The position numbers were made by a program, and so were the translations under genes. Under the pieces are notes generated by a model, which saw only the letters and a list, made by a program, of their open reading frames with translations, was not told the DNA's origin and ran no database searches. Shown here piece after piece: positions 2,074 through 59,055 of a stretch of DNA of 64,000 bases. The stretch is taken from the NCBI GenBank assembly GCA_049297675.1, contig JBAQUS010000004.1:13188-77187 (forward strand). The letters run 5' to 3'. Positions within the stretch are counted from its first letter, which is position 1; every line of letters starts with the position of its first letter. The stretch comes from Minisyncoccia bacterium (GTDB lineage: Bacteria; Patescibacteriota; Minisyncoccia; Phycocordibacterales; DATDWN01).

Positions 2074-2095
2074 CCAAAATTCTCAAGAATTTTGG
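2074..2095. promoter_or_regulatory. 10-2-10 palindrome CCAAAATTCT-CA-AGAATTTTGG overlapping the arsR-like stop and upstream of the bactofilin-like gene; candidate ArsR operator
   Basis: Perfect inverted repeat. It shares the core AATTCTCAAGAATT with the palindrome at 2471-2508. Confidence 0.45.
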
Positions 2096-2454
2096 AATTC
2101 AGTTAAAAATTTGACAAATCTTTCTCCGTAAGGAGTTAGAGAGTGAACAACATTATGACCTTTATAATTTTTATTTATTAGTCCTGCGCCTGAAAGCCTA
2201 CGTAAATGTTCGGATATAGTTTTAAAATTGCCTTTTAGGCTTGACGCAATATTTTCAACACTTGCTCCCTTTTCTTTTGATACTAGAAGTAAAATGGCTA
2301 TTCTCCAATGATTTGCGATTCCTTTTAAGTGCCTTTCCATTTGTTTGGCTGTTTTTGGAACACGATAAAAAGATGCTCCTCCATTAGATGATTTTTTTGA
2401 TTTACTTTTTTTGAAGGCTAATCCCGCTCCCATAGATTGACAGCATCCTAGCAC
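2083..2454 (-). CDS. ArsR/SmtB-family winged-HTH transcriptional regulator
   Basis: HTH_20-like segment (HWRIAILLLVSKEKGASVENIASSLKGNFKTISEHLRRLSGAGLI). GTG start in the track; the true start may be an internal Met. Confidence 0.6.
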   Translation of the reverse strand: MLGCCQSMGAGLAFKKSKSKKSSNGGASFYRVPKTAKQMERHLKGIANHWRIAILLLVSKEKGASVENIASSLKGNFKTISEHLRRLSGAGLINKNYKGHNVVHSLTPYGERFVKFLTEFQNS

Positions 2455-5706: not shown

Positions 5707-6897
5707 ATGCAATTTGGTTATACCAACATCTTTCCCTACTTTGTAATCAGTGCCTTTATGGTCGCATTTTCTATTTTTGTGTTAAAAAGAAGTAGTTTTT
5801 TTCAAAAAATAGCCGAGGCTGAAGTATCTGAGAGATACGAAGCCTTGGATGGTTTACGTGGGTTTCTAGCTATCGGGGTTTTCTTTCAGCATGCTGTACA
5901 AAATTTCTCTTTCTTTCAAACTGGTGTTTGGGTAATCACCGACTCACGGTTTTACAGATTTTTAGGGGGAGAAGCTGTTATATTATTTTTCATTACCACA
6001 AGCTTTTTATATTGGACAAAACTGGTCTTAGTAAAAAGTCACGGTGAAAATCAAATGTTTCGGTTGTATCGAAGCCGGTTACTTAGATTAGCTCCTCTTT
6101 ATCTTTTTTCGGGACTATTGGTCAGTATTATTGCCCTGTATAATGTTGACTTCAGTATTATTTCAATAAGTGGTTTTTTTAGAGATATTTTTTATTGGCT
6201 AACACTTGGACTACACACCATCCAAAGCTTTAACGGCACTGACATAATACCTATCAATGCCGGAATACACTGGACACTAAGATACGAATGGGCATTTTAT
6301 CTCTTACTACCCCTAGTAGCATTTTTGATGAAAAATTCACTTGGTAAAATTGCTTCAGTTCTTATTTTGATAGGAATATTCTCCCTTCCCGACAGAGGAT
6401 ACTGGGCAATATTTCTTTTTGGCATTCTCTCCGCCTATATTGTAAGTTACTACCCATCTATTCCATGGTTTAAGAAAAATAATTGGTCAGCTTTGGTTCC
6501 ACTCGTGGGCCTGTTTCTTGTGTACTCAATAAATTACAAACCATACTCTTATGTTCAATATTTTATCAGTATGATAGTCTTTCTGTGTTTCGTATATGGC
6601 AACAATTTATTTGGATTGTTGAAAACGCCTTTCGCAAAATTTTTGAGCACTATTAGTTACAGTGTCTATCTTTTACATGGAATAGTCCTGTATATTGTTC
6701 TAAATATTGTAAACAAGTTCTATCCCGTAGCATCTCTTAGTCCGCTTCAGTATTGGACTGTCATTCTCTTTGCTGGAATAATAGTTATTGTTGTTTCGGC
6801 TCTATCTTATAGGTTCATTGAACACAGGTTCATAGAGAAAATCAAACTTGGTAAGAAAGGGTCGTCGCCTACACCTGTAATAGAAAAAGTTATTTGA
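5707..6897 (+). CDS. Membrane acyltransferase family 3 (OatA-like O-acyltransferase)
   Basis: Multi-TM protein with LDGLRGFLAIGVFFQH-type N-terminal motif. 4-nt overlap with the downstream M23 peptidase gene. Confidence 0.6.
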   Translation: MQFGYTNIFPYFVISAFMVAFSIFVLKRSSFFQKIAEAEVSERYEALDGLRGFLAIGVFFQHAVQNFSFFQTGVWVITDSRFYRFLGGEAVILFFITTSFLYWTKLVLVKSHGENQMFRLYRSRLLRLAPLYLFSGLLVSIIALYNVDFSIISISGFFRDIFYWLTLGLHTIQSFNGTDIIPINAGIHWTLRYEWAFYLLLPLVAFLMKNSLGKIASVLILIGIFSLPDRGYWAIFLFGILSAYIVSYYPSIPWFKKNNWSALVPLVGLFLVYSINYKPYSYVQYFISMIVFLCFVYGNNLFGLLKTPFAKFLSTISYSVYLLHGIVLYIVLNIVNKFYPVASLSPLQYWTVILFAGIIVIVVSALSYRFIEHRFIEKIKLGKKGSSPTPVIEKVI

Positions 6898-12945: not shown

Positions 12946-12960
12946 ATTTAGTATAATAAC

Positions 12961-12995
12961 AAAAAATCACCGAGTTGTATCGGTGATTTTTTGTC
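12961..12995 (-). terminator. Rho-independent terminator downstream of tRNA-Gln (A-run/hairpin/T-run, bidirectional in form)
   Basis: AAAAAATCACCGA-GTTGTA-TCGGTGATTTTTTGT. Near-identical copy at 33931-33968 downstream of tRNA-Trp. Confidence 0.7.
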
Positions 12996-13082: not shown

Positions 13083-13156
13083 TGGCTGGGGGGGAAGGAA
13101 TCGGACCTTCATTAGAAGCTTCAAAGGCTCCTGTCCTACCATTAGACGACCCCCCA
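13083..13156 (-). tRNA. tRNA-Gln (anticodon UUG), CCA encoded
   Basis: Hand-folded cloverleaf: acceptor TGGGGGG/CCCCCCA, D-loop AATGGTAG, anticodon loop CTTTGAA, T-arm GAAGG-TCCGATT-CCTTC, 3' GCCA. Confidence 0.75.
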
Positions 13157-13436
13157 AATTTCTAGAATCAGGAAATCGGTCACAAATAATTTTCTGATGA
13201 AAATTTTCGCGACCCCGCCTCCTTCGTCTTCACTCAGTCCGGCCTTGCAAAAACATAACATGTTTTCTCACCCCTCTAAAGGCTTCAAAGGCCTCTGTTC
13301 TAGCGTGGGGCGTCTCCCAATATGCAATACAGTAACACTTTTTTTTGTCATCCTCAACTATTAGTCTAATCCAATTCACAATTACATACAAATATAAATT
13401 GATTAAACTTTAACTACTAATTAATTTACTTTGCTA

Positions 13437-13472
13437 TACACTTAACTTATGCTATAGCATAAGTTAAGTGTA
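13437..13472. promoter_or_regulatory. 36-nt perfect palindrome TACACTTAACTTATGCTA|TAGCATAAGTTAAGTGTA, 26 nt downstream of the PaaX-like gene stop
   Basis: Perfect 18+18 inverted repeat. Related to the palindrome at 14084-14130. Confidence 0.5.
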
Positions 13473-13498
13473 TGTAGTCTTAGTATAGTATTTTAAGT

Positions 13499-14071
13499 TC
13501 AATCGAGAGAAAGAGAAAATAATTTTCTAATTCTCTTATCACCTTCGATAGAATCTGCAATTATGTAAAGTAGATCCTTCCCTATTTTGAAATCAGCTTT
13601 CAGTAAATTAATAAAGTCCTCACAATCGTAAGGGTAAATCCAGACACTATCTTGTAATCTCAGAAAACCAACACTACTAAGAGTCAACCTGACCTTGTTT
13701 CTAAGAATTTTTCTTGTTTCGGGAATATCAAAAATGAGCATTCTCCATCTTTTATCCCATTTCTTTGGTTTGCTAATTTTCCAATCCCTTATTTCCATGC
13801 CTTCTAAATATTTTAGTCCCTTTTCAGTTATTCTTATTAACCCGTTCTCACGTCCTAAAAATCCATTTTGTAGCAATTTATCACGAGATCTAGCCATTAC
13901 TTCTCTCTGCCTCTTTATCGGCTTAAAACCTGCTTTCTCTAGATACTGAACGGCATTAGGAGCAAGCAGTGCGAGACTGACATACCCCGCTAACTTTACT
14001 GAGGTTAGTATTATTTTTTTGAGATCATTTCTTGCCTTCCTTTTTCTTGATTTATTCTCTATATCCCCCAT
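13499..14071 (-). CDS. PaaX-family-like transcriptional regulator (wHTH plus PaaX_C/Cas2-like C-terminal domain)
   Basis: WRMLIFDIPETRKILRNKVRLTLSSVGFLRLQDSVWIYP matches the PaaX C-terminal signature (W..v.fdvPe..R..lr..L...Gfg.l..svW). Confidence 0.5.
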   Translation of the reverse strand: MGDIENKSRKRKARNDLKKIILTSVKLAGYVSLALLAPNAVQYLEKAGFKPIKRQREVMARSRDKLLQNGFLGRENGLIRITEKGLKYLEGMEIRDWKISKPKKWDKRWRMLIFDIPETRKILRNKVRLTLSSVGFLRLQDSVWIYPYDCEDFINLLKADFKIGKDLLYIIADSIEGDKRIRKLFSLSLD

Positions 14072-14083
14072 TATTCGAATATA

Positions 14084-14130
14084 TCATATACACTTAACTA
14101 GTGCTATAGCACTGATTAAGTGTATATGAT
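14084..14130. promoter_or_regulatory. 47-nt near-perfect palindrome TCATATACACTTAACTAGTGCTA|TAGCACTGATTAAGTGTATATGA, 13 nt upstream of the PaaX-like start; candidate operator
   Basis: 23+23 inverted repeat with one dinucleotide swap. Shares ACACTTAACT...GCTATAGC...AGTTAAGTGT with 13437-13472. Confidence 0.5.
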
Positions 14131-14280
14131 AGTTACGTAATATGCGTTAGTGTGTCTAATTCGTGTGCTAATATGTTTGTCTAGGACTATCAATAATATA
14201 TTATGAATCTATAATCAGTTTATTTATTCTGCTATTATTACAAATGTTACTAATCCTTCGTAGAATTCAAGAAAACGATA

Positions 14281-33930: not shown

Positions 33931-33968
33931 ACAAAAAATCACTGATTTGTATCGGTGATTTTTTGTCT
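33931..33968 (-). terminator. Rho-independent terminator downstream of tRNA-Trp (copy of the 12961-12995 element)
   Basis: AAAAAATCACTGA-TTTGTA-TCGGTGATTTTTTGT. Confidence 0.65.
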
Positions 33969-44923: not shown

Positions 44924-44999
44924 CAAGCCGAAATAATCTAAACTGCTTTAGATTATTTCGGACTTGTGCGCAACCAGAATATACCTTTAGGTGATTCTG
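44919..44999. repeat. Two consecutive strong hairpins after tRNA-Lys: 44919-44972 (about 24-bp stem; the outer arm reuses the tRNA 3' end) and 44963-44999 (10-bp stem)
   Basis: GCGCACAAGCCGAAATAATCTAAA-CTGC-TTTAGATTATTTCGGACTTGTGCGC, then CAACCAGAAT...ATTCTGGTTG. CTTGTGCG recurs at 45016-45023. Confidence 0.5.
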
Positions 45000-45203: not shown

Positions 45204-45491
45204 ATAAGGAACTAAAGGGTTCTGAATGCGAACCCAAGCGGAACGCCCGAAGGGCGTGCCAAGGATTTTCGCCTGATTCTGCAAGAGAATTCGGGAATTT
45301 TGGTGTGCAAGCGTGCAAGGTTTTTTCGTCGAGACGCAGGTTCGAGCCAAAGATTTCTTTGGCATAGACCTTTTTAGTAAAAAGATCTGAATCAGAAGCG
45401 ATTCTGTCCAATGATTCCGCGTCTTTTAGCCATTGTTGGAAAGGTGCGAGCCAATCATTCTACTTGTGTGAAAGAGAGGTCATTTCTCATC

Positions 45492-45515
45492 TGTCAAACA
45501 TCCGATGTTTGACAG
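45492..45515. repeat. REP-like palindrome TGTCAAACATC-C-GATGTTTGACA (copy 1, rayT1-associated)
   Basis: Perfect palindrome with 11-nt arms, 41 nt beyond the rayT1 stop. Confidence 0.6.
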
Positions 45516-45555
45516 TAAGTTAGGGGTAGATTATTACCGAAAATGTTAAAACTTT

Positions 45556-46215
45556 TTATACTTCAAAAGTTTTGGTGTCAGCTTTTACCCCGCTATTTTT
45601 TACAAATTTATAATATTCATATTTATCCTCAAATTGGTCTAATACTACTTCCCTTTTTAATATTTCCTTCCAACGATTTTCTGTAACGTAATCCTGATAG
45701 CTAGACCACTCATATTTTTCTGGATTATTACTCCAATGTGAAAGCTCTTTTGGATTTAAATGAACATACGCAGATAAATGTAGTAGTTGTTCATTACTTT
45801 CAACATGAACTGCTTTATACGGACCTTCAAAAAGATGCCCCGAAATTTTATATTTAGTATTGAAGTATTTTGTATACGAGTTAAGTACACGTTGCATATA
45901 TTTCCCAGTTCCACCTTCTTCATTTTCACGAACTATTAGATGAAAATGGTTAGTCATCATCGCAAAAGAAACTAGGTCAACGTATCTTTTCGAAATTATC
46001 TTTTCGTAATCATCACTGTTAATGTCAAACATCCGATGTTTGACATAATTCGAGATCATTCTTGAAACTTGAGGAAAAATAACATTTGCTTGAAAGTATA
46101 AAATGAGAAATAAAAATCTAATTCTATCTCTATCATCCTTGAAGATGATTTTCTTCCCAACTCCCCGATTATATATATGATAGTGTTCCCCAATTTCAAT
46201 ATTATCTCTTCTCAT
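45556..46215 (-). CDS. IS200-like Y1/HUH transposase, RayT (REP-associated tyrosine transposase)-type, paralog 1
   Basis: YHIYNRGV N-terminus, HUH motif HFHLIV, and Y-containing C-terminal helix (GPYKAVHVE). REP palindromes on both sides. Homologous to 54366-55043. Confidence 0.65.
   Translation of the reverse strand: MRRDNIEIGEHYHIYNRGVGKKIIFKDDRDRIRFLFLILYFQANVIFPQVSRMISNYVKHRMFDINSDDYEKIISKRYVDLVSFAMMTNHFHLIVRENEEGGTGKYMQRVLNSYTKYFNTKYKISGHLFEGPYKAVHVESNEQLLHLSAYVHLNPKELSHWSNNPEKYEWSSYQDYVTENRWKEILKREVVLDQFEDKYEYYKFVKNSGVKADTKTFEV
46022..46046. repeat. REP-like palindrome ATGTCAAACATC-C-GATGTTTGACAT (copy 2) lying inside the rayT1 coding sequence
   Basis: 12-nt arms. Encodes VKHRMFD in rayT1; the same peptide is read from the opposite strand because of the palindrome. 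Confidence 0.55.
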
Positions 46216-46240
46216 AACCTCTCATCCTACATGGACAACT

Positions 46241-46277
46241 ATCCATCTGTCAAACATCGGATGTTTGACAGATGGAT
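46241..46277. repeat. REP-like extended palindrome ATCCATCTGTCAAACATC-G-GATGTTTGACAGATGGAT (copy 3; centre inverted relative to copies 1 and 2)
   Basis: Perfect palindrome with 18-nt arms, 26 nt upstream of the rayT1 start. Confidence 0.6.
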
Positions 46278-46367
46278 AAGATCGATTATTAGAAAGGCTT
46301 GTGATTTTTTTAAAATCGATCTTGTTGCAAATAACGGCTTAATGGTGGGGGTTTTTTGACGACACCC

Positions 46368-55046: not shown

Positions 55047-55077
55047 TCATCTTACTAGGGTAACCCTAGTAAGATGA
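55047..55077. repeat. REP-like palindrome TCATCTTACTAGGG-TAA-CCCTAGTAAGATGA (rayT2-associated, upstream side)
   Basis: Perfect 14-3-14 palindrome 4 nt upstream of the rayT2 start. Same core as 54342-54362. Confidence 0.6.
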
Positions 55078-59017: not shown

Positions 59018-59055
59018 CTTAACAGGTACTTGGCGGTTTAACCGCCAAGTACCTA
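59018..59055 (-). terminator. 15-bp hairpin AGGTACTTGGCGGTT-TAA-CCGCCAAGTACCT downstream of the small zinc-ribbon ORF
   Basis: Perfect long stem, with a U-rich segment after it on the minus strand. Confidence 0.5.

Follow-up and report, generated by a model that had tools for sequence, protein, structure and literature searches.

A PaaX-like gene of a Minisyncoccia bacterium between two related palindromes: a candidate autorepressor with a probable second site of its own past the stop codon

Introduction

What are two long, related palindromes doing on either side of a single regulator-like gene, and is the protein encoded between them the one that reads them? The question is raised by a 64-kb window (the whole stretch of DNA analyzed, 64,000 nt) of contig JBAQUS010000004.1 from a Minisyncoccia bacterium, in which a PaaX-like gene on the minus strand (13499..14071) lies between one palindrome ahead of its start codon and another past its stop codon. 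An earlier note on this DNA proposed that the encoded winged helix-turn-helix (wHTH) protein represses its own gene from the upstream palindrome, and that the downstream twin could regulate the neighboring tRNA-Gln region, act as a terminator, or mark the end of a small inserted module. We know of very few recognizable transcription factors in Patescibacteria and of none that has been characterized, and a literature search turned up no paper that connects these palindromes, leaderless promoters, or the Patescibacteria with proteins of the PaaX-like or Cas2-like kind.

The reading favored here, to which we give a rough probability of 0.7, is that the gene encodes a PaaX-type autorepressor that binds both palindromes and represses its own expression. 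Autorepression is the best-supported reading because bases of the site covary with residues of the predicted recognition helix.

Results

Two palindromes with a common core

The downstream palindrome (13436-13473) is a perfect 38-nt dyad, with 19-nt arms, no mismatch, and no loop, that begins 25 nt past the stop codon. The upstream palindrome (14082..14131) has 25-nt arms with two mismatched pairs, measures 48 nt if trimmed to 14083-14130, and ends 10-11 nt ahead of the ATG at 14071. Their earlier description as a 36-nt palindrome 26 nt after the stop and a 47-nt palindrome 13 nt before the start was therefore right to within a few bases (38 nt/25 nt and 48-50 nt/10-11 nt). Each palindrome contains a 36-bp core. 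The downstream core (13437..13472, 26 nt past the stop) reads TACACTTAA-CTTAT-GCTATAGC-ATAAG-TTAAGTGTA, and the upstream core, a putative operator (14089..14124), reads TACACTTAA-CTAGT-GCTATAGC-ACTGA-TTAAGTGTA on the plus strand. The two have TACACTTAA-N5-GCTATAGC-N5-TTAAGTGTA in common and are identical at 30/36 positions. The half-site noticed earlier in both palindromes was recovered, and it is exclusive to them: the exact 10-mer ACACTTAACT was found within the 64 kb only in the arms of the two palindromes. A weight matrix restricted to the conserved blocks and built on homologous loci scored both cores at 33.6 bits, compared with 0-2 matches at ≥12 bits in shuffled windows, and detected no third site at ≥12 bits in the 64-kb window.

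Palindromes flank the gene throughout the family

Relatives of the encoded protein number at least 1,799; almost all of them belong to Paceibacterota and allied groups, and they are annotated as hypothetical, PaaX, or Cas2. Eighty homologous loci were sampled from species-representative genomes (Paceibacterota), some of which supplied two or three paralogues. The block matrix identified an upstream site in 64 of these loci and a downstream site in 55, with both present in 51 and neither in 12; elsewhere, in approximately 540 kb of genome flanks, it identified about five. Within 100 nt of the gene, both ahead of the ATG and past the stop codon, long palindromes in general were 20-35 fold enriched. 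No neighboring gene was conserved across the 80 loci, the biggest neighbor cluster being eight open reading frames (ORFs) from five loci. The upstream and downstream sites of one locus were alike at 29.7 of 36 bases on average, compared with 20.4 of 36 between loci; therefore, each gene has a version of the site that is particular to it and is present twice.

In one locus (L007), the two sites are exact reverse complements of each other over 36/36 positions, asymmetric spacers included, which suggests gene conversion or inversion between the copies. An opposite orientation of the two sites was indicated by four of the first five loci with asymmetric centers and was rejected over the 51 pairs (23 direct, 10 inverted, and 18 ties). 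Locus L020 carries a third cognate site (6190-6225), 1.6 kb downstream and past thyA-like and folA genes, and L012 has the same arrangement; therefore, two transcription units in a row end at such a site in these loci.

The upstream site coincides with a putative leaderless promoter

The family site is tripartite, TACAC-N9-GCTATAGC-N9-GTGTA, and in 54/80 loci its dyad center falls between -18 and -17 of the start codon, so that the site ends exactly at the ATG. In this register the mirror-symmetric blocks (symmetry 0.8-1.0) are TACACTtAA at -35 to -28, GCTA-TAGC at -21 to -14, and TTaGTGTA at -7 to 0, and the right block finishes on the first base of the start codon. The intervening spacers are asymmetric in upstream sites (0.41-0.65), and the right spacer has its own conserved bases: T at -12 in 46/54 loci, A at -11 in 50/54, and T at -7 in 48/54. 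These bases are the signature of a -10 hexamer for transcription starting at the A of the ATG; thus, the 36-bp site coincides with the core promoter of what would be a leaderless mRNA. We infer from this arrangement that the family transcripts are leaderless and begin at the A of the ATG.

The window gene and its closest relatives (L001, L002, and L004) depart from the family register, with the site displaced 9-18 nt upstream. The upstream core of the window spans -53 to -18 from the ATG, with its center block over the -35 position, and the full palindrome covers -60 to -11, overlapping the -35 region. A putative extended -10 element, TGATATATT (14078..14086, minus strand), was read from the sequence between the core and the gene, with TG at -15/-14 and TATATT at -12 to -7; the gene-proximal arm of the palindrome, which reaches -11, extends over this TG and two bases into the -10 element. 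Such an element would put the start of transcription at or beside the A of the ATG and thus make the mRNA leaderless. No Shine-Dalgarno sequence was present ahead of the window gene, and with an apparently leaderless mRNA there would be no ribosome-binding site. The suggestion that the upstream palindrome overlaps the promoter or ribosome-binding site consequently stands for the promoter, both for the family (site on the -35 to +1 region) and for the window (-60 to -11), and falls for the ribosome-binding site.

The protein is a predicted two-domain relative of PaaX

The 190-amino-acid product is 100% identical to WAX44_00645, from a Minisyncoccia metagenome-assembled genome. Residues 103-178 match Pfam PaaX_M (PF20803), the Cas2-like central domain of PaaX, with an E value of 4e-20 (72.1 bits; cut-off, 24 bits), and PF20803 was carried by 120/120 homologues among the matches listed. 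The N-terminal part matched Pfam poorly: a weak winged-helix match covers residues 64-93, and the only Pfam family returned for this part was HTH_45 (E 0.046), with no match to the PaaX N-terminal domain at E ≤1. There was no Pfam match to PaaX_C, and the protein stops right after the Cas2-like fold.

A structure model of the monomer was made from 98 sequences and had an overall predicted local distance difference test (pLDDT) score of 69.7, ranging from 79 to 88 in the Cas2-like part and from 42 to 77 in the winged-helix part; an earlier model made from 25 sequences (pLDDT 53) was too poor for use. The modeled winged helix comprises helices 36-46 and 53-68 and a wing at 72-81. It is followed by a ferredoxin-type beta-alpha-beta-beta-alpha-beta fold (residues 108-172), with strands at 109-114, 137-140, 143-146, and 167-172 and helices at 118-134 and 151-161. 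D115, at the position of the Cas2 metal-binding Asp, was invariant in the 98 sequences. In a Foldseek search of the Protein Data Bank, the top match was E. coli PaaX (PDB: 8A39; E 5.7e-5), followed by Rv0674 (PDB: 3KFW) and then many Cas2 proteins; the alignment to 8A39 covered 192 columns with a root-mean-square deviation of 13.7 Å, the winged-helix part being of low pLDDT. The Pfam and Foldseek results together bear out the first assignment of the protein as PaaX-like.

Bases of the site covary with residues in both domains

Covariation between site and protein was counted over the 64 loci with an upstream site, without full phylogenetic correction. Site position 4 is G in 12/13 loci with an aromatic residue (Y or F) at position 58 of the protein and in 0/51 otherwise. 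Site position 5 is C in 31/39 loci with R at residue 61, compared with 1/25 otherwise, and site positions 2-3 follow residue 57, the TGTAC class going with a residue other than E. Residues 57, 58, and 61 lie on one face of the predicted recognition helix (53-68).

The center of the site follows a residue in the other domain. The center CTATAG was accompanied by D141 in 38/40 loci and a GC-type center by N, H, K, Q, or R at 141 in 16/22. When two ACAT centers were pooled with the GC-type class, the association was 38/2 versus 6/18 (Fisher p 5e-9), and on a rough tree the center and residue-141 characters underwent approximately 16 and 15 inferred changes, respectively. Residue 141 is in the beta2-beta3 hairpin of the Cas2-like domain in the model. 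Both signals fall where a wHTH-spacer-dimer-spacer-wHTH geometry predicts.

These data are consistent with the following mechanism. The protein would be a two-domain relative of PaaX in which an N-terminal winged helix is followed by a Cas2-like domain, the probable seat of dimerization, and the dimer would sit on the 36-bp dyad-symmetric site through three contact blocks. Each of the two winged helices may recognize one outer block (TAC[A/G][C/T] or its mirror, approximately 31 bp apart), and the Cas2-like dimer may lie over the center block, GCTATAGC, leaving two spacers of 5-6 bp each unread. In the family register, the left block would lie at -35, the right spacer would be the -10 hexamer, and the right block would end on the A of the ATG. 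Because the operator would then lie on the core promoter, the bound protein is expected to exclude RNA polymerase, so that the gene represses itself. In the window, the site would act through its overlap with the -35 region and with the TG of the separate extended -10 element, TGATATATT. In E. coli, PaaX recognizes TGATTC-N27-GAATCA and shuts down its own promoter by keeping RNA polymerase away from it (PMC9493321). The predicted family operator, TACAC-N26-GTGTA at -35 to 0 in 54/80 loci, is akin to this inverted repeat both in spacing and in lying over the gene's own promoter.

The downstream twin is best read as a second site for the same protein

Of the genes that come next after the 55 downstream sites, 27 are on the same strand and 26 on the opposite one. 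A -10 motif (TAnnnT) was present in 11/55 downstream sites compared with 46/64 upstream sites, and an ORF started in register with the downstream site at 1/55 loci. A role as promoter or operator of the next gene was rejected on these three observations. The downstream site of the window is AT-rich and is followed by TAGCAAAGTAAATTA. No U-tract follows the downstream sites, and a terminator scan of the window site found nothing; the window has ordinary hairpin-plus-U terminators elsewhere, for example at 12959-12994. Canonical terminators occurred after the downstream site in 15/54 loci and in 5/25 loci lacking the site; these similar rates give no support to the downstream site as a substitute for a canonical terminator. 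In view of the missing U-tract and the similar terminator rates, the downstream twin does not appear to be simply a terminator.

If the start is leaderless, the upstream site lies outside the mRNA, and the blocks common to both sites would have to act on DNA. The best reading of the downstream palindrome is therefore that it is a second cognate DNA site of the same protein, placed at the 3' end of the transcription unit. It would most likely act jointly with its upstream counterpart, whether through a DNA loop or through bound protein that blocks or insulates transcription passing out of or into the gene, although our confidence in any one such role is much lower than in binding and autorepression. 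Template-switch correction of quasi-palindromes is an established mutational bias, and the perfect symmetry of the downstream site may be a by-product of it where no -10 element needs to be kept. The symmetry of the spacers fits two explanations, this bias and selection for a hairpin or cruciform; the second keeps alive a reading of the palindromes as repetitive extragenic palindromic (REP)-like or nuclease-linked elements.

Orphan palindromes occur away from the gene

Metagenome contigs were scanned with the exact pattern TACAC-N9-GCTATAGC-N9-GTGTA, which matched at least 120 contigs. Among the matches listed, 15 sites flank a family gene and 76 unique sites are intergenic orphans. Of the latter, 42/76 are perfect 36-mers among the matches listed, with spacers of 0.8-0.87 complementarity and a symmetry that reaches 40-46 nt. 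The spacers differ between copies and are symmetric inside each, as in the TACACCTATC series (contigs L093, L176, L200, and L102). The repeated unit is the palindrome alone (38-50 nt); identical 36-41-mers stand at unrelated loci, and one orphan is identical to the downstream site of L004. At least five T in the next 8 nt were found for 4/76 orphans among the matches listed. The exact pattern is matched by 16% of gene-flanking sites; allowing for this, orphans are approximately as numerous as flanking sites, a handful per genome, and are probably bound by the same proteins. None was found in the other 63 kb of the window, against a background of about five per 540 kb of genome flanks, or one per 100 kb.

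Imperfect orphans tended to abut the start of the next gene (9/14 among the matches listed), for example that of uvrC. No gene family recurred beside the orphans that could indicate a regulon, except that a few imperfect sites in closely related contigs abut uvrC and two other genes. In three contigs (L109 22-102, L164 4597-4699, and L191 5509-5701), orphans of unlike outer-block specificity (TACAC versus TACGT/TACAT) stand 45-160 nt apart in one intergenic region, an arrangement that resembles clustered REP sequences (bacterial interspersed mosaic elements, BIMEs). In approximately 17 of the contigs listed (for example, L101 1260-1295 and L103 985-1020) the pattern was matched by a GC-rich sequence, TACACTGCGCGCTAGCTATAGCTGCGGCGCAGTGTA, the spacer of which is not palindromic; this class was set aside as a probably unrelated conserved sequence.

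The earlier note had counted palindrome half-sites at unrelated terminators, away from the gene family, as evidence against its proposal. Orphans are indeed common near the 3' ends of unrelated genes in metagenome contigs; they have the same architecture as the gene-flanking sites, and one equals such a site. The picture is widened rather than overturned.

The tRNA-Gln side and other features of the window

Beyond the downstream palindrome lies tRNA-Gln(UUG) (13083..13156, minus strand), which is also kept downstream in the nearest relative among the genome loci, L001, and which we take as surroundings of the module rather than a component of it. The GC-rich stretch reported at 13160-13340 is real. 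Its 5' part (13277..13323, minus strand) corresponds, in degenerate form, to the 5' half of tRNA-Gln(UUG), being a 70% direct repeat of the tRNA with acceptor TGGGAGA and anticodon loop CTTTGAA, on which neither ARAGORN nor Rfam made a call. This remnant sits where L001 has its intact tRNA-Gln and explains part of the GC-rich stretch; the intact tRNA of the window, with an acceptor stem (TGGGGGG) unlike that of the remnant, is 120 nt beyond it. The stretch as a whole folds no better than shuffled sequence (z 0.24), outside the remnant it (traced over 13190-13345) has no Rfam match and no unusual fold, and across the palindromes and the stretch Rfam returned sub-threshold microRNA-hairpin matches only. 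The GC-rich stretch looks like a decayed tandem tRNA copy.

Several other features of the window involve palindromes. An unrelated ArsR/SmtB-type regulator gene (2083-2454, minus strand) is laid out in like manner: a palindrome of 38 nt, with TACAAT after it, lies just upstream (2471-2508), and one of 28 nt overlaps the stop codon (2071-2098). The two have AATTCTCAAGAATT in common, and regulators of this genome may quite generally carry paired 5' and 3' sites. A gene for a REP-associated tyrosine transposase (RAYT)/IS200-like protein (45556-46215, minus strand; NCBIfam REP_Tyr_transpos, E 2e-6) is accompanied by the palindrome TGTCAAACATCnGATGTTTGACA at 45491-45515, 46022-46046, and 46240-46278, and the region 45491-46278 looks like a classical REP-RAYT arrangement. 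Near-identical bidirectional terminator-like hairpins (ACAAAAAATCACyGA ... TCGGTGATTTTTTGT) are located 21 kb apart at 12959-12994 and 33931-33966, the second adjoining tRNA-Trp. Further long perfect or near-perfect palindromes of unrelated sequence are located at 55047-55077, 59024-59054, and 44928-44961.

Discussion

Points that weigh against autorepression

Several results sit uneasily with autorepression by promoter occlusion. The core site of the window gene is off the family register, 17 bp further upstream, and a simple sigma-70 scan of the gene strand found no -35/-10 pair. The covariation counts carry no full phylogenetic correction. The structure model is moderately confident (pLDDT 69.7; winged-helix part 42-77), and because it is monomeric, the dimer geometry proposed above is a guess. 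The distances between upstream and downstream sites showed no helical phasing, which is a weak test at approximately 600 bp. Among the matches listed, 20/26 near-perfect orphans are nearer to the upstream stop codon than to the next start codon (median 45 versus 101 nt), and promoter occlusion does not predict that perfect orphans should be placed at 3' ends. Nor does a model of three contact blocks explain why spacers that would be unread are perfectly symmetric in the downstream site of the window, in 10/55 downstream sites, and in 42/76 orphans among the matches listed. Finally, a regulator with its own flanks as its clearest targets has no evident physiological output.

Alternative explanations

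The downstream palindrome might instead be the operator of a tRNA-Gln or noncoding-RNA promoter, so that the protein controls tRNA-Gln expression. The site is on the same strand as the tRNA-like remnant and tRNA-Gln and upstream of both, its right arm reads TAAGTT at the -10 position, and tRNA-Gln is likewise downstream in L001. Against this, approximately 110 nt separate the end of the site from the remnant, and approximately 280 nt separate it from the intact tRNA; L001 is the only one of 60 scanned loci with tRNA-Gln immediately downstream, yet the twin is present in 55/80 loci whatever follows, with mutually unrelated neighbors on either strand and a -10 motif in a mere 11/55. We regard control of tRNA-Gln as scarcely credible. 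The 3'-end placing of the orphans, on the other hand, invites a reading of the palindromes as nucleic-acid hairpins, that is, REP-like elements that terminate transcription or guard mRNA 3' ends, with the gene merely among them or the protein acting on the hairpin. The perfect 36-mers, with spacers that vary between copies and are symmetric within each, the median distance of 45 nt past a stop codon, the palindrome as the sole repeated unit, and the paired orphans within one intergenic region are all what such elements would show. The upstream copies, however, have asymmetric spacers and would lie outside a leaderless transcript, and they keep the conserved blocks all the same; there is covariation between block bases and protein residues; the sites lack a U-tract after them; canonical terminators follow the downstream site at 15/54 loci, compared with 5/25 loci without one; and the terminators of the window itself are ordinary hairpins plus U. 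Template-switch correction could yield perfect symmetry without a hairpin function. A hairpin role therefore strikes us as unlikely.

A selfish or mobile system comparable to RAYT/REP is another candidate, in which a Cas2-like nuclease would nick or cut the dyad center and so spread or maintain the palindromes or move the cassette. Like RAYT genes, the family gene is flanked on both sides by cognate palindromes, and the window has a RAYT-like gene of its own (45491-46278); genomes carry two or three paralogues; identical 36-41-mers recur at unrelated loci, including an orphan equal to a gene-flanking site; D115 is invariant; the center blocks look like restriction sites (GCGGCCGC, CGATCG, and CTATAG); and the L007 sites are exact reverse complements. 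These observations have to be set against two-sided synteny at the protein level, found for many pairs of loci and likewise for the window compared with L001, which argues for stable vertical inheritance. Synteny breakpoints at the gene had been hinted at by one-sided blastn matches and were discarded on the protein-level comparison. The idea that the palindromes are the ends of a small inserted module fails similarly, since L001 (65% amino acid identity) has the same upstream neighbors and tRNA-Gln downstream, and the comparison with related genomes gives no sign of a recent insertion. No relatives of the protein were found in viral contigs; a phage or defense link was dropped on this result together with PADLOC, which returned Cas2 models only, and PHROGs, which returned nothing. 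The copy number is low (approximately one orphan per 100 kb), the orientation of the sites is inconsistent (23 direct, 10 inverted, 18 ties), and the fixed start-codon register with an embedded -10 element is a regulatory anatomy. PaaX itself is a repressor, and we know of no nuclease activity of PaaX; the DIPE motif could simply cap helix alpha1. Mobility by cutting is thus very unlikely in our estimate. A further reading, in which the Cas2-like domain is a sequence-specific reader, perhaps a cutter, of the center of the 36-bp dyad, and the proteins with their perfect, dispersed palindromes form an unrecognized repeat-plus-protein system in Patescibacteria comparable to REP/RAYT, is unlikely; if true, it might shed light on how palindromic repeats of approximately 36 bp became partners of the Cas2 fold.

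Implications

For autorepression, the analysis supplies each member of a family of at least 1,799 proteins, present as two or three paralogues per genome and now labeled "hypothetical," "PaaX," or, probably wrongly, "Cas2," with a predicted operator, a putative leaderless promoter architecture, and residue-base pairings (58 with position 4, 61 with position 5, and 141 with the center) that are directly testable in vitro without cultivation. If the Cas2-like domain does read the center block, this would be a new DNA-recognition role for the fold and could serve as a guide to the way in which PaaX covers its 39-bp site. Together with the perfect orphans, the 3' twin points beyond promoter occlusion to a function such as a roadblock, an insulator, or a REP-like element, in genomes in which the boundaries of transcription units are poorly understood. 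Judged from the sequences, the regulatory logic appears ordinary apart from two odd features, the apparent reading of the center block by the Cas2-like domain and the perfect, REP-like orphans.

Comparison with known systems

The family protein shares with Cas2 and VapD a ferredoxin-like fold (beta-alpha-beta-beta-alpha-beta) in which strand beta1 closes with an Asp, and many Cas2 structures were returned by Foldseek. Cas2 profiles match the protein weakly (Pfam, E 2.6e-4; TIGR01573, 26.4 bits versus a cut-off of 24.5, over residues 110-144 only). Cas2 is a stand-alone protein of approximately 90-100 amino acids encoded next to cas1 and a CRISPR array, whereas here the fold is fused to a predicted winged helix in a protein of 190 amino acids. 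Neither cas1 nor a CRISPR array was found in the window or flanks, and the tandem repeats of the window amount to one 17-nt repeat in two copies. Some family members (P0081, P0083, P0118, and P0120), from several metagenome-assembled genomes, are publicly named "CRISPR-associated endonuclease Cas2"; such labels rest on a match of approximately 35 residues and are probably a systematic misannotation in Patescibacteria genomes.

As in REP/RAYT systems, the orphan palindromes among the matches listed are short, dispersed in intergenic DNA, mostly past gene 3' ends, in part identical at unrelated loci, and sometimes clustered, and the gene is flanked by its own palindromes. Unlike a RAYT, the protein is not an HUH/Y1 enzyme and matches neither Y1_Tnp nor REP_Tyr_transpos; the estimated copy number is a handful per genome rather than hundreds, and the upstream copy is built into a promoter at a fixed register. 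The covariation of the dyad blocks with the predicted winged helix implies recognition of duplex DNA, unlike REP.

Operator pairs such as lac O1/O2 and gal OE/OI combine a primary operator on the promoter with a second cognate site hundreds of bp downstream, and the arrangement proposed here is similar. Here, in contrast, the downstream site is past the stop codon rather than inside the structural gene, and helical phasing is absent. The replication terminator protein (RTP) of B. subtilis is an autoregulated winged-helix dimer with Ter sites beside its own gene and a non-promoter role elsewhere in the chromosome. The family differs from lac, gal, and RTP in having several paralogues of different specificity per genome.

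The best structural match is PaaX (E. coli and Pseudomonas, PDB: 8A39 and 3L09; Rv0674, PDB: 3KFW), a phenylacetyl-CoA-responsive repressor in which an N-terminal winged helix precedes a Cas2-like middle domain, the order also seen in the model of the family protein. Both would use long inverted repeats with widely spaced half-sites, TGATTC-N27-GAATCA for PaaX and TACAC-N26-GTGTA here. The family protein lacks the C-terminal domain (190 versus approximately 305-316 amino acids) and scores 28.2 bits against the TIGR02277 equivalog (cut-off, 264.55), and no sign of paa genes was found in the largest neighbor clusters inspected across the 80 loci. For these reasons it is not a PaaX orthologue, and phenylacetyl-CoA is an unlikely ligand in view of the missing C-terminal domain and paa genes. 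Further apparent differences from PaaX are the conserved center block that covaries with the Cas2-like domain, the second site past the stop codon, the dispersed orphans, and the putative leaderless promoter. The system would therefore be a variant of PaaX-type logic: a two-domain, PaaX-like candidate autorepressor with a tripartite operator on what is probably a leaderless promoter, a conserved 3' twin of that operator, and a small dispersed set of cognate palindromes.

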